Shown here: piece by piece, positions 1,174 to 44,787 of the stretch
How the letters are laid out: each line of letters starts with the position of its first letter
How positions within the stretch are numbered: the stretch's first letter is position 1
Source of the DNA: Candidatus Bruticola sp.
Lineage (GTDB): Bacteria; Vulcanimicrobiota; Xenobia; Xenobiales; Xenobiaceae
DNA: 64,000 nt
Direction: 5' to 3'
Assembly: GCA_051874695.1 (NCBI GenBank)
Contig: JBJEGC010000015.1
Span: 119,800-183,799, forward strand
Position numbers and translations under genes: made by a program
The notes under the pieces: model-generated
Told to the model about the DNA's origin: nothing
Databases searched by the model: none
What the model saw: the letters and a program-made list of their open reading frames with translations, nothing else

Positions 1174-3225
1174 ATGAGGAAAGCCACTGTTACCAGATTC
1201 GCTTGTTCATTGTTAATTCTGGCTATATGCATGCTTCTGCCCTTGCAAGCCGGTGCGAAACCGAGTAAACAGGCTAAAGAACTTTCCGATATTGAGCAAA
1301 CCTTAGCTCCGATAGCTCTGTATCCCGACAGCTTGCTCGGCAATGTTTTAATAGCTTCAACCTATCCAGAACAAATTATTACAGCTCAAGAATTGCTCGA
1401 TAAATATCCGAAAGACAACCTGGATGATTTAACAAAAAGAGCTGAACATCAAGACTTAGATGAAAGTGTCGTCTCCCTCTTAGCCACTCCAGACGTTGTT
1501 CGAACTATGTCGAGCGACATGGATTGGACAAACGATCTCGCCGACATTTTCACTAATAAAAATGATGAAATGTATACGGCTCTGCAGAGTTTGCGCCGCA
1601 TTGCTTACGATAATAAAAAACTCGCCTCGAACGACGATGTACAAGTAACTACCGAAAACAACTATATATACATCAATCCGACCAATCCTAATACGATGAC
1701 CGTACCTACTTACGATGTAAATTATGTGTACGGCATATCATCTCCCAATTACGGATACACTTTTGTAAATTCCGCCATTCAGTGGGGTACGTTTACTCTT
1801 TTGAACGAACTCTTCTATGGCAGCAGCTGGGACTGGCACGGACGCCGCTTCTGGTGGGGTCCTGGCTACAACTACTACCGTTATTGGAATAACAGCTGGT
1901 ATCCTTGGAACTATAATCGCCACTACTACAATCCTCCGCCGCCTCCGCCGCCTCATCGTCCCAGTTATACTCCTCCGCCACCACGCCCTCACCGCCCTGG
2001 CTATAACGGTTATCGCCCCGGTCACGAACGTCCGCATGCAGATAGACCACACCCCGTACACGGTTGGGATAGCGATCGTCCGGGACGCCCAAGCAGACCG
2101 GGAATTGACAGCAGCAGGCCCGTGCGCCCGGGCAGACCTAGTCTCGACAGCGGAAAGCATAGCCGCCCCGACAAACCTAGTCTCGACGGCGGAAAGCACG
2201 GCCGCCCCGGACGCCCCAGCTTCGACAGCGGAAAAGCCACACTTCCCAGTAGAGAAGGCGTAGACGGCGGAAAGTACAACCGACCCGGACGCCCCAGCTT
2301 CGACAGCGGAAAAGCCACACTTCCCAGTAGAGAAGGCGTAGACGGCGGAAAGCACAGCCGCCCCGGACGCCCCAGCTTCGACAGCGGAAAAACTACGCTT
2401 CCCAGTAAGGCAGGTGTAGACAGCGGAAAGTACAACCGACCCGGACGCCCCAGCTTCGACAGCGGAAAAGCCACACTTCCCAGTAGAGAAGGCGTAGACG
2501 GCGGAAAGTACAACCGACCCGGACGCCCCAGCTTCGACAGCGGAAAAGCCACGCTTCCCAGTAAAGCCGGTGTAGACGGCGGAAAGTACAACCGACCCAG
2601 CAAGTCGTCTTCGGACAGTTCGAGCTACAGCAGGCCTAGCAGGCCATCTTCGAGCAGCTCAAGTTACAGCAGGCCTAGCAAGTCGTCTTCAGACAGTTCA
2701 AGCTACAGCAGGCCTAGCAGGCCATCTTCGAGCAGCTCAAGCTACAGCAGGCCCAGCAGGTCATCTTCGGACAGCTCAAGCTACAGTAGACCTAGCAGGT
2801 CATCTTCGGACAGCTCAAGCTACAGTAGACCCAGCAGGACATCTTCGAGCAGTTCAAGCTACAGTAGACCTAGCAGGTCATCTTCGGACAGCTCAAGCTA
2901 CAGCAGGCCTAGCAGGCCATCTTCGAGCAGTTCAAGCTACAGCAGGCCTAGCAGGCCATCTTCGGACAGTTCAAGCTACAGCAGGCCTAGCAGGCCATCT
3001 TCGAGCAGCTCAAGCTACAGCAGGCCCAGCAGCCCATCTTCGAGCAGTTCAAGCTACAGTAGACCCAGCAGGTCGTCTTCGAGCAGTTCAAGCTACAGCA
3101 AGCCCAGCAGGTCGTCTTCGAGCAGTTCAAGCTACAGCAAGCCCAGCAGGCCATCTTCGAGCAGTTCAAGCCACAGCAGGCCTAGCAGAGCTTCTTCTAA
3201 ATCAAAGGGTGAGCACAACGACTAA
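1174..3225 (+). CDS. Secreted protein with a DUF3300-like N-terminal domain and a long Pro/Ser/Gly-rich tandem-repeat tail
   Basis: Signal peptide MRKATVTRFACSLLILAICMLLPLQAGA. Motif LAPIALYPDSLLGNVLIASTYPEQ, which I recall as the DUF3300 signature. After about 250 aa come a PPPPPPPHRP stretch, 26-aa repeats (GRPSFDSGKATLPSREGVDGGKYNRP) and then 14-aa repeats (SYSRPSRPSSSSSS). The stop is TAA. Confidence 0.7.
   Translation: MRKATVTRFACSLLILAICMLLPLQAGAKPSKQAKELSDIEQTLAPIALYPDSLLGNVLIASTYPEQIITAQELLDKYPKDNLDDLTKRAEHQDLDESVVSLLATPDVVRTMSSDMDWTNDLADIFTNKNDEMYTALQSLRRIAYDNKKLASNDDVQVTTENNYIYINPTNPNTMTVPTYDVNYVYGISSPNYGYTFVNSAIQWGTFTLLNELFYGSSWDWHGRRFWWGPGYNYYRYWNNSWYPWNYNRHYYNPPPPPPPHRPSYTPPPPRPHRPGYNGYRPGHERPHADRPHPVHGWDSDRPGRPSRPGIDSSRPVRPGRPSLDSGKHSRPDKPSLDGGKHGRPGRPSFDSGKATLPSREGVDGGKYNRPGRPSFDSGKATLPSREGVDGGKHSRPGRPSFDSGKTTLPSKAGVDSGKYNRPGRPSFDSGKATLPSREGVDGGKYNRPGRPSFDSGKATLPSKAGVDGGKYNRPSKSSSDSSSYSRPSRPSSSSSSYSRPSKSSSDSSSYSRPSRPSSSSSSYSRPSRSSSDSSSYSRPSRSSSDSSSYSRPSRTSSSSSSYSRPSRSSSDSSSYSRPSRPSSSSSSYSRPSRPSSDSSSYSRPSRPSSSSSSYSRPSSPSSSSSSYSRPSRSSSSSSSYSKPSRSSSSSSSYSKPSRPSSSSSSHSRPSRASSKSKGEHND
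2086..2600 (+). repeat. Tandem coding repeat, 78-bp unit (about 5 full copies plus degenerate half-units upstream)
   Basis: Near-identical 78-bp units beginning ggacgccccagcttcgacagcggaaaagccac at about 2208, 2286, 2364, 2442 and 2520. All are in frame within the 1174..3225 CDS. Confidence 0.8.
2596..3190 (+). repeat. Tandem coding repeat, 42-bp unit x about 14
   Basis: Unit agctacagcaggcctagcaggccatcttcgagcagctcaagt with small variations. It encodes SYSRPSR[PS]SS[SD]SSS. In frame within the 1174..3225 CDS. Confidence 0.85.
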
Positions 3226-3383: not shown

Positions 3384-4589
3384 ATGGCTTTTAATAACCA
3401 GTACAGCAAAAAAACACTGCTCAGCTTGATTGCCTGCCTGATAATTTCAGTGTGGCTGCCCTTAACAGCTCAAGCTTCTAGCTATTCAGATCATGAGCTT
3501 GACCAAATTATGGCTCCCGTAGCTCTCTATCCTGACAGCTTATTGGGCAACGTTTTAGCTGCCTCAACTTATCCGGATCAATTAATAGAAGCAGACAGCT
3601 GGGCCTCTCAGCATCATTACAACAGTGCCTCCGACACCTTAAATAGCGTCGCCAATAAAACCTGGGATGACAGCGTTAAATCCCTTCTCTTAACACCTGA
3701 AGTAATTGCTATGATGGTCAACGATTTGACCTGGACAGACAAACTGGCGCAAGCTTTCACTACTCAGAAGAGTGAACTCTGCGATTCTGTTCAGAGATTG
3801 CGTCGTCAAGCAAAAAGCAACGGTGTTTTGGAAACAAACGATCAAGTTAAAGTAGTAGAACAGAATAACGTTATCTCTATTGGCTCGTCCCAAAGCGACA
3901 TTATCGCCGTACCTCAATATTCCACGCTTGTTTGTACGCAAACATTCGATCCGCTCGATACGTTCTTAAAAACGGCCTTAGTATGGGGAACTGTCCGCAC
4001 CTTGGATACCATATTTTTCGGAAGTTATTGGGATTGGCACTCTCACGACATTTACATTGGTCCAGGATACAATCATTTTTACTGGGATGGCGCTCCCAGA
4101 GCGTGGTATCCTCATCCTCCAGTTCCGCCGCCGCCTCACCACGATCCGCACCATCCGGCTCCCGCTCCATATGTTCCTAAAATGCATCCCAGCCACAATC
4201 CCCCGCCTCCTCATTATGTGAGCCAACAAAAAACATACCAAGATCGCCGTCCCGGCCAGTACTCACCTAACAAGCACCACAGTGAACCGGCTCACTCATC
4301 AGCTCCAAATCATCCGGCCACTAAAGGTAACCCCAATTACCACTCCCCTGCTCATATAGACCAAAGCATACACAGTCGTCAAACAACTCCCCAGCATCAA
4401 AATGAGCGTCCCAATTTTGATAAGAGCCATTCTGACCCCACTAGGGCAGAGCTCAAACATGAAGAAGCCAAGCAGCATCTGCAGCAAAATCAGCATGAAG
4501 AAGCTAAGCAGCACCTGCAGCAGAATCGGCGTCAAAGCAGCAGCCGGACAAAAGAACGCCGTACCCGATCTTCACGACTGAGAAAATAA
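3384..4589 (+). CDS. Secreted DUF3300-like paralog with a Pro/His-rich C-terminal tail
   Basis: Signal peptide. MAPVALYPDSLLGNVLAASTYPDQ is homologous to the first gene through roughly the first 250 aa (WDWH..IGPGYN conserved). The tail is Pro/His-rich with a duplicated HEEAKQHLQQN. Confidence 0.7.
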   Translation: MAFNNQYSKKTLLSLIACLIISVWLPLTAQASSYSDHELDQIMAPVALYPDSLLGNVLAASTYPDQLIEADSWASQHHYNSASDTLNSVANKTWDDSVKSLLLTPEVIAMMVNDLTWTDKLAQAFTTQKSELCDSVQRLRRQAKSNGVLETNDQVKVVEQNNVISIGSSQSDIIAVPQYSTLVCTQTFDPLDTFLKTALVWGTVRTLDTIFFGSYWDWHSHDIYIGPGYNHFYWDGAPRAWYPHPPVPPPPHHDPHHPAPAPYVPKMHPSHNPPPPHYVSQQKTYQDRRPGQYSPNKHHSEPAHSSAPNHPATKGNPNYHSPAHIDQSIHSRQTTPQHQNERPNFDKSHSDPTRAELKHEEAKQHLQQNQHEEAKQHLQQNRRQSSSRTKERRTRSSRLRK

Positions 4590-17439: not shown

Positions 17440-17514
17440 TGGTGGGTTGTACAGGACTCGAACCTGTGGCCACCTGATTAAAAGTCAGATGCTCTACCAC
17501 TGAGCTAACAACCC
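17440..17514 (-). tRNA. tRNA-Lys (anticodon UUU)
   Basis: Cloverleaf folds by hand. Acceptor gggttgt/acaaccc, anticodon loop cuUUUaa, T-arm ggttcgagtcc. CCA is encoded. Confidence 0.85.
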
Positions 17515-17548
17515 ATACTCACCATCAACCTTATACAGCTGTCAGAGC

Positions 17549-17626
17549 TGGGGTGGATAGTGGGATTCGAACCCACGACCTCCGGTTCCACAGACCGGCG
17601 CTCTAACCGACTGAGCTATATCCACC
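17549..17626 (-). tRNA. tRNA-His (anticodon GUG)
   Basis: Extra 5' G(-1) paired with C73. Anticodon loop cuGUGga. T-arm gggttcgaatccc. CCA is encoded. Confidence 0.85.
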
Positions 17627-17637
17627 ATATTTTCTCT

Positions 17638-17713
<76 letters not shown>

Positions 17714-17743
17714 ATATACCTTATGCTCTTTACCAGCGACACT

Positions 17744-17821
17744 TGGTCGGAGCGGCCGGATTTGAACCGGCGACCCCTTGCTCCCAAAGCAAGTGCGCTA
17801 TCCAGGCTGCGCTACGCTCCG
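17744..17821 (-). tRNA. tRNA-Pro (anticodon UGG)
   Basis: Acceptor cggagcg/cgctccg. Anticodon stem cttgc/gcaag with loop uuUGGga. T-arm ggttcaaatcc. CCA is encoded. Confidence 0.85.
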
Positions 17822-17873: not shown

Positions 17874-18215
17874 TACCTTTACTAAAAAAAAATACATTTT
17901 TTCTTTCATATCTTTCAAGCGACGGCTATATACCATCGGCAGCCGGTATACTTTTTTCTGCCTAACTGTAAAAGAAACAGCGCCCTCCAGAGGCAAAACA
18001 GCAGTCAAAAACTAAACAATTCTCTCTCCCAGGAACTATGCAAACAAAGTATCCCAATTTTAACATAGATTAAAAAGAATATAGGCAAATTTCCCATTAA
18101 ATAATTAGAGAATTTCCCATTTTAAGCTTTATAAAACATAAAAGACAGGTTAAAAATATTAAGACAAATATGGGTCTTATCAATGTTTTACTGATCGGAG
18201 ATAGATATACGTATC

Positions 18216-20090
18216 ATGTTCATTAAGAAAAACACGTATCTAAAGTTTGCCAGCGTTTCTCTTGTACTACTTTTATCAGGAGGAGTAGCTGTCACCTCAG
18301 CCGGATGCAGCGAAGGCGACGTCGTTCATAACCATTATGCGGCTACTTCCAACGGCGGATCAGCCTCAGATCCTTCAGATCCCTCCTCTCCTTCGGACCC
18401 TTCAAATCCTTCAGATCCGTCCTCTCCCACAGATCCCGGCCAGGTTTGGGGGCGCACGGTCTTTATCTCTATAGCTACCGACACTTTACCTGCAGAAGTA
18501 GTCAGCGCCCAGTATAGCTACAGCGACGCCGACGGCAATCAAATTAAAAAGTCCGATCCGGAAACTATCGATCGCGAAGGCTCCAATGTTTATACCGCCA
18601 CAGACGACAGCGTGCCCGAAGGGGCTGTAAAAATTACTATTGCTTATTACGACAAAGACGGTAATCTTTTGGCGGTTGATGAAAAAGACCTCGATTGGTA
18701 AAGTGGCGGCTCTGAAGGCAGCAGCAGCGAAGGAACAGCCAGCATAGAAAGCAGTGATCCCGCCACTATTTCTACCGATTCTACACTGGTACTTCAAGCT
18801 GACAAATACGTTTTAAAGCCTTCGGAAACGACTAAACTAACCTGCCTCTTGGTCAATGCAGATGGCACCAGCGTCGATGTAACTCCCTTTGCTGCCTTCG
18901 GCAATGTCTATAGCGACGTCTTAACCAGCAGTAACAGTGAAATTCACGGTCAGTATCAAGCGGTTGGCTACAACGGCAAACACGAAGGCGTAGCCGATAA
19001 AATTTCAGCCACTGCCTCGACCCCTTCAGGCAAGCAAACCGTTCTTATTGCTAGTCCAATATATGTCACGGAGCAAAAGGTAGACAGCATTAAGCTAGCC
19101 CCGGCTAATCTCGACGGCCTGGAGATAACAGTCAGCGACAACAACACGCCCAATAACCCCAACGACGACTACTCAACTTTGGTCTGTGTGCCAGAAGTAT
19201 TTAACGGCAAAACAGTACACCAGAGTTTCAACCGAAAAGCTGGTACTTTCAGCTTGCACGGATTGAATGCTGAGGTTGACGCCATAAACGAACAGCCCAT
19301 GCTCGCTTTAGCCTCGTTTACCAGCGAATCAGGAAAAGGCCCCTCCCCGACTGGAGTCGATGTAACAGATCAAACTACTTTTTCGGCCCAAAATACTACA
19401 ACTTACGCGATCTGGATAACCTTCGACGTTGAAACTGAGGGCAATATCATCCGTCCTAAAGCCATAGAGTCAAAACTGGCCAGCAATGTAGGATATTCAA
19501 ACGATATTCAAGTTACGGGCGTATATTCGAACGACGGCACCGAGCTTACCGCCTCTACTAAGGTGCGTGCCAAGCTAGGCTGGTCGCACACCTCTTTTGC
19601 ATTTAAACAGGATGATGGCACCTATCGACCGGTCAGCTACGAACTAAATCAGTATGTATATAAAACCAATAGCGATCCCCTCAACGCTGGCAACGATATA
19701 CTCTGTGGCGTCAAAACTAACCCTAAGCTGGTGGTCAGCCAAGAATTCTATCTAAAAGGAGTAATTTGCTACGGAGGTAAGACATTCTGCTGCGATATTC
19801 CCGAAGAGTTGCTGCCTGCTGATGGCTACCCAGGTGCATCTTCCGGAGGAGCAGGCATTAGCACAGTAACTCCCTCCCTTAGACAGACTGTTTCCAAGCA
19901 CAACAACTATCTCTTTGAGGTGACCTGGTACGGTTCTTCCAGTTATGATCATGCCTACCTGAAAATTAGAGAAGATAGCGTATGGACTGCGGCTTGCCTG
20001 CCTTCATTTGCCCCTGGTGAAGTCTATAACATCAACCGCAGCTACGGAAGTTATATCGCTTCAGGTATAATCGATATCGGCAGCAACTAA
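18216..20090 (+). pseudogene. Big_2-like lipoprotein gene (paralog 1) with one in-frame TAA at 18699-18701; otherwise a continuous 624-codon frame
   Basis: Lipoprotein signal ending TSAGC. ORFs 18216..18701 and 18849..20090 are in the same frame, separated only by the TAA. Sequence on both sides aligns colinearly to paralogs 2 and 3 (AYYDKDGN, ADKYVLKPSE, KGVICxxGKTFCCDIPEE). Downstream terminator at about 20110-20156. Confidence 0.7.
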
Positions 20091-20109
20091 CTTTTCAGCG
20101 CAAATAACA

Positions 20110-20156
20110 AAAAAAGCCCTCTTCAGTCTTACAGACAGAGTAGGGCTTTTTTTTGT
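20110..20156 (+). terminator. Intrinsic terminator after lipoprotein paralog 1
   Basis: gccctc...gagtagggc stem followed by tttttttt. Confidence 0.6.
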
Positions 20157-20603
20157 TACTTAACTAACCAGCCTGAAAATTTCTTACTTCCCCTCTACGG
20201 CATTACATATTACAAAAAGGCGATTAAATATTATACATACAACCCTCTTTTGTTGAAGCGCTTCCCTAGATAAAGATCCATAAAAACATAGCATCCACCA
20301 ATAACATCTTTATAGATACAATTATTCTACTAACATATACCGTATTTATCATATACAACATAATAAGTACAATTAAAAAAAACACATTAATTGATTAATA
20401 ACAATTTTATACACAATATTTCATCATATTTTACATAAAACATTAACTGAATAATTACACAAAAACATATACTGTTATATAGATAAGTAAGTTTAAAAAA
20501 CCTATATTTTCGGACATTTAAACGCTTTAAACCAGGACAAAATTTTTTTTAAGTAATATAAATAACCTCTTATTATTCCCCAGGGAGACAAAAAAACTTC
20601 ACC

Positions 20604-22451
20604 ATGAATCTTAACTCAAAAATGTGCTTAAACTTTACTCGTATTTCACTCATACTACTTTTAGTTGGAGGAGTTGCCTGCATGTCGTCCGGATGCGGTG
20701 ATGACGTAACGCACAATCACTACACAACCGGCAGCAGTGCCTCTACCGATACACCTGGCGGCGGTTCCAGATCTTCTACCGACGATCCGGGCAGCGGTTC
20801 TCAAGACCCCAGCCAAGTATGGGGACGCACCGTTTTCATATCTATTGCGACAGATACTCTACCTTCGGAAGCGGTTACTGCTCAATACACTTACAGTGAC
20901 AGCTAAGGCAACCCTATTAAACAGTCCGGACAAGAAACTATTGATCGCTCAGGAGCAACTAACTACACCATCACCGATGAGTCTGCGCCCAGCGAAGCGG
21001 TCAAGATGGTAATTGCTTACTACGATAAAAACGGTAACATTATAGCTATCGACGAACGGGACATTACTTGGGACGGCGAAGAAACCGGCAGTGTCCAAAG
21101 CAGCGATCCCAAAGAGCTCAGCCGCACGGCCAAGCTGGTACTTACAGCCGACAAATACGTTTTGAAGCCTTCAGAACAAACACAGCTGACCTGCATGTTG
21201 GTAAACGAAGACGGCAGCAGCGTTAACGTTACTAATTTCGCTGCTTTTAGCAACATTTACAGCGATGTCCTCAAGGGCTCCGGTGAAAGCACACGCGGAC
21301 TCTATGAAGCCGTTGGTCATAGCGGAACTCACGGCGGCGTAGCCGATAAAATTCAAGTTACCGCTTCTACCCCTGCCGGCGAGCAGACTGTGTCTTTGGA
21401 CAACCCCATTTATGTAACCGAACAGAGTATTAACGGCTTTTATTTAAAGCCCGGCGATATTGACGGACATAAAATTACTGTCAATGACAACTCTACCCCA
21501 AATAACCCCAACGACGACTACTCTGTGGTTCTTTATCTGCCCAATGAAGTCAAAGGCGAAGTTGTCAATCAAACTTTAAACCATAAATGGGGTACCTTCA
21601 CTAAATACGACGATTTAGTAGAAAATTATGCTATAAATGAACTGCCTATAACTGCTATAGCGACATTCGGCAGTGAAGAAGGCAAAGGTCCCTCTCCCAC
21701 AGGCCTCGATATCACTGACAAGGTGTCTTTCTCGGCTGAAGTTACTAAAGTTTGGTCTTCAGAATTACTTCCTACTGTTTCCATGAGAGACAAGGTCGTC
21801 TTACCCAGTTTTGACTATTCCACTGCCAAGTTCTTTAGCGGCATAAATTCAGCAAGTACTGTAACTGTCACCGGTACTTACAAAGAAGGAAGTCTTGACA
21901 CTTCATCAAGTTGTTTGGTTAAGATGGCGCCAAGTTGGACAAAAACAGCTTTTGCCGTAAAGAAAGAGGATGGAACTTACAGAGCTATCGGCTACGAACT
22001 CGGTGATCAAGTATACGATTCCTCAACTACCCCTGAAGCTGGTTACGCTACTGGAGCCAAAACTTATCCCAATACGACAGTCAAAAGAACCCTGTATTTA
22101 AAGGGAGTAATATGCGCTCTGGGTAAAACTTTCTGCTGCGATATTCCGGAAGAAATACTCCCCAACGGCAAATATCCCAGTGCTTCCTCAGCTTCTTACG
22201 GAGGTAATGTCACGGAAACTATCAGCCAAGTAGAATCCGGCAAAAATGAATACCTTCTCACAATAACCTGGCAAACTACTGGCACCGATGTCAATTTCTC
22301 CGCCGACCGTGTAAAGTTGTCTTTGAATGTAGACAGCACCTATACCGATGCTTGCTTGCCTTCATTCTCCTTGGCCGAGTTCTTCTACAAAACATATATC
22401 TACGGCAGTTATTCTACTGCTGGTGAGTACTTCATGGATAACGACGAATAA
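20604..22451 (+). pseudogene. Big_2-like lipoprotein gene (paralog 2) with one in-frame TAA at 20904-20906; otherwise a continuous 615-codon frame
   Basis: Lipoprotein signal MSSGC. ORFs 20604..20906 and 21006..22451 share a frame. The TAA occupies the position of an Asp codon (GAC) in paralog 1 (YSDADGN vs YSDS*GN). Homology to paralog 1 is colinear through the C-terminal Cys-rich motif. Confidence 0.7.
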
Positions 22452-22500
22452 ATAGACAAAAATCTGCTACAGTTACACTGCAGGCAGACTGTTGATAACT

Positions 22501-43158: not shown

Positions 43159-44787
43159 ATGGCAAAAAAGAACAAATTCGGTTTTATTGCTTTCACCGCT
43201 GCTGCCAGCCTTGGTCTAGCTCTAACTGCCGCTGGTTGCGGCACTCACAATGGTTCATCCGAGGCAGCATCCCTCGGAGGCAATAACAGCGTAATTTTCC
43301 GTTATTACTTAACTCCTGCCCAGCGTGCTTTTGTACTAAACGACATTACTAAGGTTCGTTACAGCTTCTTGGACGGTCAGGGCAGCGTATTAAAGACCAC
43401 TCAAGCTTACGATTTAAAACACACTTCTCAATTAACTGAGCGCAATATTTCCGTTCCCAACGTACCCAGTGTAGCCTATAAAGTTGCGGCAGCCTATTAC
43501 GATGACTTCGGCTCTATAGTTGCAGTCGGCGTAAACAACATAGAATGGGACTACGATCTGGTTCAAGCCGAAGTTGAGACTCCGCAAATTTCTAAATTTG
43601 TCTATTCGGACACCGGTTTGCAGGCCAGCTCATACGTTTTAAAGCCTGATAAAATTACCGTTCTGTCTCTGCCGGTTACAACCACCGACGGATCCGACCG
43701 TGTCGTCAACCTGATCGCTTTTGCCGATGTTACAGGTTTAGAAGGCTATACCGACGTTCTGGAGCCAATCGAAGACTCACAGACTTACAAAGGCGTCAGT
43801 TTCACCGGCGAGCATAAAGGCGTCGTTCCGGCCGGAACTGTAAAAGCAGTCGTGCCCATCGCTGACGGAAATATCAGTGCCACTCTCGATCGTCCCATCT
43901 ATGTAACTTCCCAAACGATCGCTTCTATCAAACTTGAGCCTACTGCCATCGATGATACAGCCATTACCGTTCGTAATGCCGATACCGATACTCCTTACAG
44001 CAAAATTTTAACGTTTGACCCAGCTCTCAAAAATGCTGATCTCGGCCAAAAGGTAGCGGTTTTCCATCCTTACCATGAGCCTGTCACCGAGACCGAAGCT
44101 GTAGCTATCGGCACTCAGTACTTCACCGTCACCGGTGTTTACAGCGATACTGCCAACAGAGGTCCTGTACCTGAAGATGTCGATGTAACCGACCTGTCAA
44201 CTTTCACTATTGAGCAGGAATCAGAAATGGCTTCTATCACCAAAAACAGAGTCGACGTCTACAAACAGGTATTGGAGCCTTTGGGTGTCAACAGTGTGTT
44301 GGTAAAAGCCTCCTTCAGTGATCAAGGTCAGCTTGATGAGCCTCTTACAGCTCAGCACAGACTCGATGTCTACTACGGCGAAGGCAATGTAGGCTTAACT
44401 CACGCCTCCGATTACGAAGACGGCATCATTTTAGAGACTCTTTCCGCCGACGATATACCCGAAAAAGATGGATTGCCGCTCGACATGGTCGGAACTATAG
44501 TTTATGTTCCCGGCGACATCGATACGGAACTCATGTCAACTAGCTGCTTCGTACTTCCCGAGAGCATTGTATCCGAATATCCCGAACTGGAAACCTACTG
44601 TGCTTACGAAGTAGGCAAGTTGAACATTAATAATGTTGCCGGCAACCAGTATAGACTCAGCAAAAATACGGAAACTTACGGTGAAATAACCAAAGATCAT
44701 GTTATCCGCCTTGTAAATCAAGCTGACTATACTAAGCTTGCTCTTCCCACATTCTATCCGCTTCCCGTGACGGCTCCTACTGAGTAG
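43159..44787 (+). CDS. Big_2-like lipoprotein, intact paralog 3 of the family at 18.2-22.5 kb
   Basis: Lipobox LTAAGC. AAYYDDFGSIVAVGVNNIEWDYD and DRPIYVTSQTIASIKLEP align to paralogs 1 and 2. Single uninterrupted 542-codon frame. Confidence 0.7.
   Translation: MAKKNKFGFIAFTAAASLGLALTAAGCGTHNGSSEAASLGGNNSVIFRYYLTPAQRAFVLNDITKVRYSFLDGQGSVLKTTQAYDLKHTSQLTERNISVPNVPSVAYKVAAAYYDDFGSIVAVGVNNIEWDYDLVQAEVETPQISKFVYSDTGLQASSYVLKPDKITVLSLPVTTTDGSDRVVNLIAFADVTGLEGYTDVLEPIEDSQTYKGVSFTGEHKGVVPAGTVKAVVPIADGNISATLDRPIYVTSQTIASIKLEPTAIDDTAITVRNADTDTPYSKILTFDPALKNADLGQKVAVFHPYHEPVTETEAVAIGTQYFTVTGVYSDTANRGPVPEDVDVTDLSTFTIEQESEMASITKNRVDVYKQVLEPLGVNSVLVKASFSDQGQLDEPLTAQHRLDVYYGEGNVGLTHASDYEDGIILETLSADDIPEKDGLPLDMVGTIVYVPGDIDTELMSTSCFVLPESIVSEYPELETYCAYEVGKLNINNVAGNQYRLSKNTETYGEITKDHVIRLVNQADYTKLALPTFYPLPVTAPTE

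Follow-up and report, generated by a model that had tools for sequence, protein, structure and literature searches.

A tandem pair of lipoprotein genes, each interrupted by a single in-frame TAA, lies in the 64-kb stretch of Candidatus Bruticola DNA analysed here (the window), together with a third, intact and more distant member of the same family. The neighbourhood consists of ordinary chromosomal genes, including those for EF-P and RapA, a tRNA cluster and ABC transporters. The features on which the argument turns are these:

18088..18121, + strand: 11-nt exact direct repeat AATTTCCCATT, with copies at 18088 and 18111
18216..20090, + strand: paralog 1 lipoprotein gene, 624 sense codons and one TAA (window ORFs, tblastn)
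18216..18308, + strand: predicted lipoprotein signal peptide, lipobox-like, ending TSAG and followed by C (read from the sequence; the Cys is nearly invariant)
18366..18436, + strand: 9-nt periodic repeat, the SDP/SSP-rich disordered tether past the lipobox
18699..18701, + strand: ochre codon in the paralog 1 frame, TGG TAA AGT (sequence, alignment)
20109..20160, + strand: intrinsic-terminator-like hairpin, a 21-nt inverted repeat then a T-run, ending paralog 1
20604..22451, + strand: paralog 2 lipoprotein gene, 615 codons and one TAA (tblastn, window ORFs)
20904..20906, + strand: ochre codon in paralog 2, AGC TAA GGC, inside the first Ig-like domain
43159..44787, + strand: paralog 3, intact distant member, 542 aa (tblastn)

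Paralog 1 is read in one frame from the ATG at 18216 to the terminator TAA at 20088-20090, and its sole lesion is the TAA at 18699-18701, in the context GAT TGG TAA AGT GGC; a single uninterrupted tblastn HSP spans the entire gene, as expected of a frame without frameshifts. The segment 18702-18848 is open too, though outside the listed ORF, which starts at TTG 18849; measured from stop to stop the downstream part is 462 codons long. The stop falls directly 3' of the codon for the family-invariant Trp161, where the first Ig-like domain ends, and coincides with the start of a length-variable Gly/Ser/Glu linker (the stop, then SGGSEGSSSEGTASIE). In the NCBI annotation the gene appears as two hypothetical proteins, ACI38Q_04945 (161 aa) and ACI38Q_04950 (413 aa). 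The copies of AATTTCCCATT, 23 bp apart and about 100 nt 5' of the ATG, are possibly an operator or promoter element; the sister species lacks them, and its version of the tether repeat is 14 codons shorter.

Paralog 2 follows in tandem and is 48% identical to paralog 1 over 631 aa (tblastn). It has only one in-frame stop, in the context GAC AGC TAA GGC, and is likewise annotated as two hypothetical proteins, ACI38Q_04955 (100 aa) and ACI38Q_04960 (481 aa). Paralog 3 is much farther removed in sequence, at 26.5% identity to paralog 1 over 437 aa (tblastn). The two stops thus occupy codon 162 of paralog 1 and codon 101 of paralog 2, of about 620; the first in-frame starts past them are TTG 18849 and ATG 21006, neither of which is followed by a signal peptide. 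Among about 46 genes in the window paralogs 1 and 2 are the only interrupted ones, and the probability of both landing by chance in a family of three members is 0.003. The only other same-frame pair of ORFs in the window, 34227/34713, proved to be two unrelated genes belonging to different Pfam families (SRPBCC and a dehydrogenase).

A preliminary description of this DNA had reported the 624-codon frame with one TAA and no other damage, the absence of frameshifts, a terminator belonging to the gene itself and a direct repeat upstream of it; sequence and tblastn bear out each of these. Its alignment with two paralogs, colinear across the stop, is recovered by tblastn at 20604..22451 and 43159..44787, both of these encode Asp at the stop site as it had said (GAC in each), and its second family member with the same kind of lesion at a different site is paralog 2.

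The N-terminus of these proteins comprises a basic stretch and a hydrophobic stretch, then MFIKKNTYLKFASVSLVLLLSGGVAVTSAG followed by Cys31, which is conserved in at least 90% of sequences. The lipobox was called by reading the sequence and has Ser, not the usual Leu, at position -3; on these features the protein would be a bacterial lipoprotein, processed as an Lgt/LspA substrate, with a lipobox-like rather than canonical site. Past the lipobox comes a tether of Ser, Asp and Pro, whose coding sequence is periodic at 9 nt. No piece of the paralogs matched any Pfam profile above threshold, those of Big_2 and related Big families included. The AlphaFold2 model of an intact homolog, P0002, has a mean pLDDT of 73.5; its first 93 residues are disordered and the remainder is all-beta, in about five domains. 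Foldseek aligned this chain weakly to SbsB, SbsC, Sap and cadherins (E about 1e-7, TM 0.1-0.2). The predicted protein is a lipid-anchored string of about five Ig-like beta-sandwich domains on a disordered tether. Lipobox, tether and all-beta domains taken together predict a beads-on-a-string surface protein, an adhesin or surface-layer component. The similarity to bacterial Ig-like proteins is at the level of fold only, and by sequence the protein belongs to no named family. Placed on the model, the paralog-1 stop lies directly past the last strand of domain 1, and that of paralog 2 in a loop inside domain 1.

Relatives of the two genes indicate what the stops replaced. A search of 5.8 billion proteins returned 12 matches, of which eight were close relatives at 50-59% identity. 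Seven of these are complete, at 611-637 aa, and the eighth is a 530-aa fragment. All eight have a sense residue at both stop positions in the alignment; the check proposed in the preliminary description, a comparison of TAA with the codon in related genes, has therefore given a sense codon in all relatives examined. At the paralog-2 site four species have GAA, the syntenic gene of the sister species has GCA, and paralog 1 has GAC. With GAA present in four species, the simplest and likely origin of the paralog-2 stop is one G>T change, GAA to TAA. At the paralog-1 site the codon in relatives is GAC, AAC or AGC, any of which would need two changes to become TAA; GAA and TCA would each be one step away as precursors, and a G>T change from GAA is plausible.

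Wider searches disclosed no intact allele of paralog 1 or 2: there was none among the 5.8 billion proteins, among 1.84 billion cluster representatives or in the GTDB species genomes. The JGI metagenomes yielded only two more intact genes of the P0002 type, and no intact allele of either paralog.

The two genes are old duplicates which have both long been kept under purifying selection. Between them omega (dN/dS) is 0.14, with dS saturated; for paralog 2 against the gene of the sister species, dN/dS is 0.18 in the part downstream of the stop and 0.07 in the stretch immediately before it. Columns that are invariant in intact members are retained to 86% in paralog 1 and to 92% in paralog 2. This retention of family-invariant residues, with the history of purifying selection, makes the lesions recent relative to the age of the genes. 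The preliminary description had offered very recent inactivation as one reading of the lone stop, and the absence of the stop in relatives, the conserved residues and the dN/dS of 0.14-0.18 all support it. It had also held that a random pseudogene should have picked up further lesions, which proves a weak argument. Nonsense changes make up only 4.1-4.2% of the possible substitutions in both frames, and about 17 neutral substitutions (about 0.9% divergence) would have to accumulate before a second stop reached a probability of 50%; the strains carrying the stops are separated by roughly 0.02%. With so few substitutions giving stops and so many needed, a lack of further damage is unremarkable in a young pseudogene.

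That the stops exist in the organism, as far as assemblies can show, is clear from independent data. When the 161-aa and 413-aa pieces were looked up by exact sequence, three Logan contigs matched, two of them from runs SRR30616792 and SRR30616822, and the Logan assemblies of these two runs reproduce both the split into 161 and 413 aa and that into an N-terminal fragment and 481 aa. Across 5.4 kb, both stops included, the contig from SRR30616792 matches the window at 100% identity. That from SRR30616822 also carries both stops and differs from the window at two places over 5.3 kb. The first is in a tRNA, where the contig has a chimeric junction; the second is a true SNP, C>A at window position 22445, which changes Asp to Glu in the tail of paralog 2. 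Two slightly different, independently assembled genotypes carry both stops, and the lesions are therefore shared by both. The stops are known solely from genomes about 99.98% identical at the locus, and these may represent one clone sampled repeatedly in one cohort. The source sequence is a metagenome-assembled genome, and both lesions lie in paralogous genes with short conserved stretches in common; on those grounds one might suspect an artefact of sequencing, assembly or polishing, such as reads that cross-map between the paralogs and corrupt the consensus. Such an artefact is nonetheless a very unlikely explanation, and the sequencing or assembly error entertained in the preliminary description is effectively excluded by the assemblies of these two runs, which agree at both sites and of which one is marked by a genuine SNP. 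Cross-mapping in particular is unlikely because paralogs 1 and 2 share just 65-70% or so of their DNA sequence near the stops, with dS saturated. Nor could TAA be obtained by mixing codons, since the choices at the paralog-2 site are GAC and TAA, and at the paralog-1 site paralog 2 offers no aligned codon in the three-way DNA alignment.

The same locus has a different history in a sister species. In the MAG LOHA09_bin.039 the interval from EF-P to RapA is syntenic, and one intact 611-aa gene stands in place of the two. Three-way DNA alignment shows this gene to be a hybrid: it follows paralog 1 in its upstream region, signal peptide and tether, and paralog 2 from the conserved WGRTV segment on. 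The dS of either half against the window is about 0.4-0.5, as against 1.4-2.5 for the flanking genes, save EF-P at 0.47. Codon bias was considered as a source of the low dS at the lipoprotein locus and rejected: ENC is 56 and 52 here, as in most neighbours, and 45 in EF-P, which is more biased. Recent gene conversion between paralogs 1 and 2 was also rejected, the WGRTVFISIATDTLP segment that they share being full of synonymous differences, with dS saturated. The simplest account, based on these alignments, would be that the tandem paralog-1/paralog-2 locus passed between the two species after their split and that a deletion between the paralogs afterwards gave the sister its hybrid. Elsewhere in the sister genome four family genes stand in a tandem row.

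The family to which these genes belong is very small and, judged by the sequences retrieved, appears restricted to gut Xenobia (Vulcanimicrobiota). A profile search of the 1.84 billion cluster representatives yielded, at E<=1e-3, no more than 51 proteins, several of which are fragments, and the members outside the window come from gut metagenome assemblies, judging by the titles of the records. Candidatus Bruticola belongs to the class Xenobia of the phylum Vulcanimicrobiota, formerly Eremiobacterota. Other broken members exist. A 939-codon member (L013/L014), identical in two runs, is split into 522 and 416 by one in-frame TAA. Another (L017) has TAG just past the lipobox, where its relative L016 has ACG, a less certain case at a coverage of only 2.9x. 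A third (L018/L019), seen in 10 contigs, has both a frameshift at a G7 tract and an in-frame TAG, and is an older pseudogene with two lesions. Of 20 family gene regions compared as DNA, five are interrupted; the rate is not free of bias, since three of the five (L013/L014, L017 and L018/L019) were picked because they looked truncated. TAA, TAG and frameshift at unrelated positions fit repeated loss; they do not fit recoding of a particular codon. No natural one-domain member was identified among the family sequences, the short representatives being gene fragments, frameshifted pieces or chimeras.

Accounts of Bruticola and Xenobia, in their titles and abstracts, contain nothing apparently relevant to recoding or to this lipoprotein family, and searches with the MAG accession, the run accession and the isolate name of the sister MAG led to no paper.

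We consider it probable, at roughly 0.85, that two independent and very recent nonsense substitutions to TAA have made young pseudogenes with one lesion each, or loss-of-function alleles, of paralogs 1 and 2. The ancestral state would have been two old tandem genes for a lipid-anchored surface protein, both functional for long; in this strain each copy would have gained one nonsense substitution independently, in paralog 2 most likely by the G>T transversion of a GAA (Glu) codon and in paralog 1 plausibly by the same change. Translation would then end after 161 residues in paralog 1 and 100 in paralog 2, the former product being a lipoprotein with domain 1 only and the latter a fragment of domain 1. 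Because the 462 and 514 codons downstream have neither a signal peptide nor a convincing restart site, they would provide no functional surface protein. Both losses would be part of a birth-and-death turnover across the family.

The preliminary description had also listed programmed read-through or suppression of the TAA among its options. TAA would then sometimes be decoded, and the gene would give the full-length protein alongside a short lipoprotein with one domain. Two members in one genome and L013 elsewhere do each have a single TAA in a frame otherwise open, and the paralog-1 stop sits exactly at a domain boundary, but the idea finds no support in the remaining data and we regard it as very improbable. 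The stop is absent from every diverged ortholog or paralog; the three TAA codons are at three different positions; and other broken members have TAG and a frameshift instead. TAA is moreover the commonest ordinary terminator here, ending 42 of the 68 stop-to-stop ORFs of at least 120 codons in the window, and reassignment of TAA in the genetic code is ruled out by this dominance and by the confinement of internal TAA to two paralogs in the window. The base 3' of the stop is A in paralog 1 and G in paralog 2; in bacteria where this has been studied, UAA-A and UAA-G terminate efficiently and are not leaky contexts. No stable RNA structure was predicted downstream of either stop (folding z of 0.62 and 0.54 against shuffled sequence), the only Rfam elements found were tRNAs, with no recoding element, and the four tRNAs of the 64-kb window are ordinary (Lys-UUU, His, Arg and Pro), none being a suppressor with a UUA anticodon.

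Three further explanations take the interruptions to be useful in themselves. The 161-aa product of paralog 1 might be a selected short isoform, the downstream part being in the course of disposal: the gene is cut off just where the final strand of domain 1 and the invariant Trp have been encoded, and in front of that point it retains an undamaged promoter region and signal peptide, both conserved in the sister gene (dS 0.41). This we judge unlikely, as no natural one-domain member was identified among the family sequences; the paralog-2 stop, moreover, is inside domain 1, where no folded product is possible, and the downstream frame is free of any decay, which fits a very recent event and not an established short form. 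The one-domain lipoprotein of paralog 1, as predicted from the sequence, could still retain some function. It is also unlikely that the family is toggled at the level of the population as a form of surface variation, with the TAA codons of three members in two organisms as contingency states. Recurrent nonsense or frameshift mutations would turn genes off; tandem paralogs recombining with each other, or a low level of read-through at the ochre codon, would turn them on again. Neither lesion lies in a slippable homopolymer or short tandem repeat, both being base substitutions in non-repetitive sequence, and paralogs 1 and 2 lack the repeat switch of a phase-variable contingency gene. Most improbable of all would be a recombinational on/off switch, in which the two silenced copies serve as a reservoir from which a crossover rebuilds one intact hybrid gene. 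Such a hybrid of paralogs 1 and 2 does stand at the syntenic site in the sister species, and as the paralog-2 stop is upstream of the paralog-1 stop in the alignment a rescuing crossover could occur; it would be required to fall between the stop positions, at about codons 107-161 of paralog 1. The sister's junction, however, is upstream of both stop positions, and hence would not rescue these lesions. The required interval is only about 65-70% identical, with very short identical runs, an identity too low for efficient homologous recombination given the requirements of RecA, and no repeats or invertase sites were found.

The double hit in one family points to a common cause, for instance selection that has been relaxed or reversed, and not to recoding. 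Together with the turnover seen across the family, the p of 0.003 suggests that selection on the surface protein has been relaxed or reversed here. We infer that loss was tolerated since paralog 3, and perhaps others, remains; redundancy with paralog 3 is thus one possible cause. Functional coupling is another, for the second loss may have followed the first as the two proteins work together. Loss may also have been favoured, for instance as an escape from phage or from host antibody aimed at the exposed protein. Adaptive loss and neutral loss are both possible readings, either of which the same data fit. In a picture drawn from assemblies, the population may still include some intact alleles as a minority, and read-through may occur at a low level.

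Such lesions have precedents. The surveys of bacterial pseudogenes by Lerat and Ochman and by Kuo and Ochman reportedly describe strain-specific nonsense alleles. As in young bacterial pseudogenes generally, there is here one inactivating substitution per gene with full-length homologs intact in relatives, the lesion is confined to one near-clonal lineage without further decay, and automatic annotation has split the gene into separate hypothetical coding sequences; the difference is that two adjacent and anciently diverged paralogs have been inactivated at much the same time. Birth-and-death evolution, with many pseudogenes, is seen in the paralogous lipoprotein families of Borrelia and Leptospira. 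The Xenobia family resembles them in being lineage-specific and arranged in tandem (four in a row in the sister genome), and in its deletion-made hybrid gene, interspecies exchange of alleles and repeated independent disruptions; it differs in belonging to another phylum, with unrelated sequences, and in having neither a plasmid location nor evidence of cassettes or gene conversion. From LigA/LigB, intimin/invasin and the S-layer proteins SbsB, SbsC and Sap the Xenobia protein is set apart by the lack of a Pfam Big_2 match and by global TM-scores of 0.1-0.2, by its anchor, which is a lipobox and not a beta-barrel, SLH or LPXTG, and by a conserved Cys-rich C-terminal motif, KGVIC..GKTFCCDIPEE, of which they have no counterpart. 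Known examples of recoding are selenocysteine at UGA, pyrrolysine at UAG and the leaky UGA that gives A1 of phage Q-beta. The paralogs share with these an in-frame stop in a reading frame otherwise open, but here the codon is UAA, unconserved, and accompanied by neither a recoding element nor a weak termination context.

For the annotation of this genome it follows that ACI38Q_04945, 04950, 04955 and 04960 are really two interrupted genes, for which a pseudogene flag is due. No general principle is altered by this: a lone stop in an otherwise perfect frame is the expected look of a young bacterial pseudogene, not evidence of recoding. The analysis also defines a small, uncharacterised family of what are predicted to be large multi-Ig surface lipoproteins, specific to gut Xenobia. 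Rapid gain and loss, hybrid genes and exchange between species are typical of proteins exposed to phage or to host immunity, and a turnover of this kind makes the family a reasonable candidate for a surface through which this uncultured lineage may interact with its host or its phages.

The public annotation of window 18216-22451, which holds the two tandem lipoprotein genes (paralogs 1 and 2), lists four hypothetical proteins (NCBI ACI38Q_04945 to ACI38Q_04960), not two pseudogenes. Another tandem paralog pair in the window consists of two neighbouring DUF3300 genes (1174-3225, 683 aa; 3384-4589, 401 aa), each of them intact. Features upstream of paralog 1 and near its 5' end are as follows:

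17440-17821, minus strand: four clustered tRNA genes (Lys-UUU, His-GUG, Arg-UCU, Pro-UGG), immediately before the lipoprotein locus on its upstream side
18088-18098 and 18111-18121: two exact copies, 23 bp apart, of an 11-nt direct repeat, AATTTCCCATT, upstream of paralog 1
18366-18436: 9-nt periodic repeat that codes for the SDP/SSP tether

One Logan contig (L009/L011) has a chimeric junction at the tRNA-Pro gene. The 11-nt repeat may be a binding site for a regulator; the sister species does not conserve it, and it is missing upstream of paralog 2. At the 9-nt repeat the gene of the sister species has 14 codons fewer than paralog 1, so the length of the tether differs among species.

Interrupted members of the family are found beyond the window. 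A distant member of 939 codons (contig L013, 887-3751) is divided by one in-frame TAA (CTT TCT TAA GAT) into 522 and 416 aa; an identical copy is present on L014, the two coming from another organism (Logan SRR18969901 and SRR18969902). A further member, found on 10 contigs from several runs (L018 / L019, 1664-3458), has a frameshift at a G7 homopolymer and an in-frame TAG downstream. Six Gs in place of seven would restore the frame, and the tract could be a slippage site; the gene is nevertheless dead whatever the poly-G length because of the second lesion. In another family member (L017, 1833-3542) an in-frame TAG directly follows the signal peptide region, at a position that is ACG in a relative, L016; this TAG could be an error, as coverage of the contig is only 2.9x.

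The inter-strain SNP at window 22445 is a G:C/T:A difference. The GAA>TAA change that we infer at 20904, in paralog 2, is of the same type, as would be that at 18699, in paralog 1, if its hypothetical precursor were GAA or TCA. The events are few, and choosing nonsense changes for study introduces a bias, so that an oxidative-damage or MutY-type mutation spectrum is no more than hinted at.

The sister genome also carries a family array, and its single gene at the syntenic locus (on L001) is a hybrid, with a 5' end of paralog-1 type and a body of paralog-2 type:

L015 (sister contig JBJEGD010000035.1) 530-6349: four family paralogs, head-to-tail, of 523, 448, 538 and 539+ aa
Window 18099-18440 and 20804-22456, compared with L001 7882-9836: the two parts of the hybrid

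A run of N precedes the second (448 aa) array gene, whose 5' end therefore cannot be judged. Between window and sister, dS is 0.41 and 0.53 for the two hybrid parts and 1.4-2.5 for most flanking genes, EF-P (0.47) being the exception; codon bias was looked for in the lipoprotein genes and none was found. That the hybrid parts diverge far less than most of their neighbours, with no such bias in the lipoprotein genes, suggests an exchange of the lipoprotein locus between species and then a deletion between the paralogs that gave rise to the sister hybrid.
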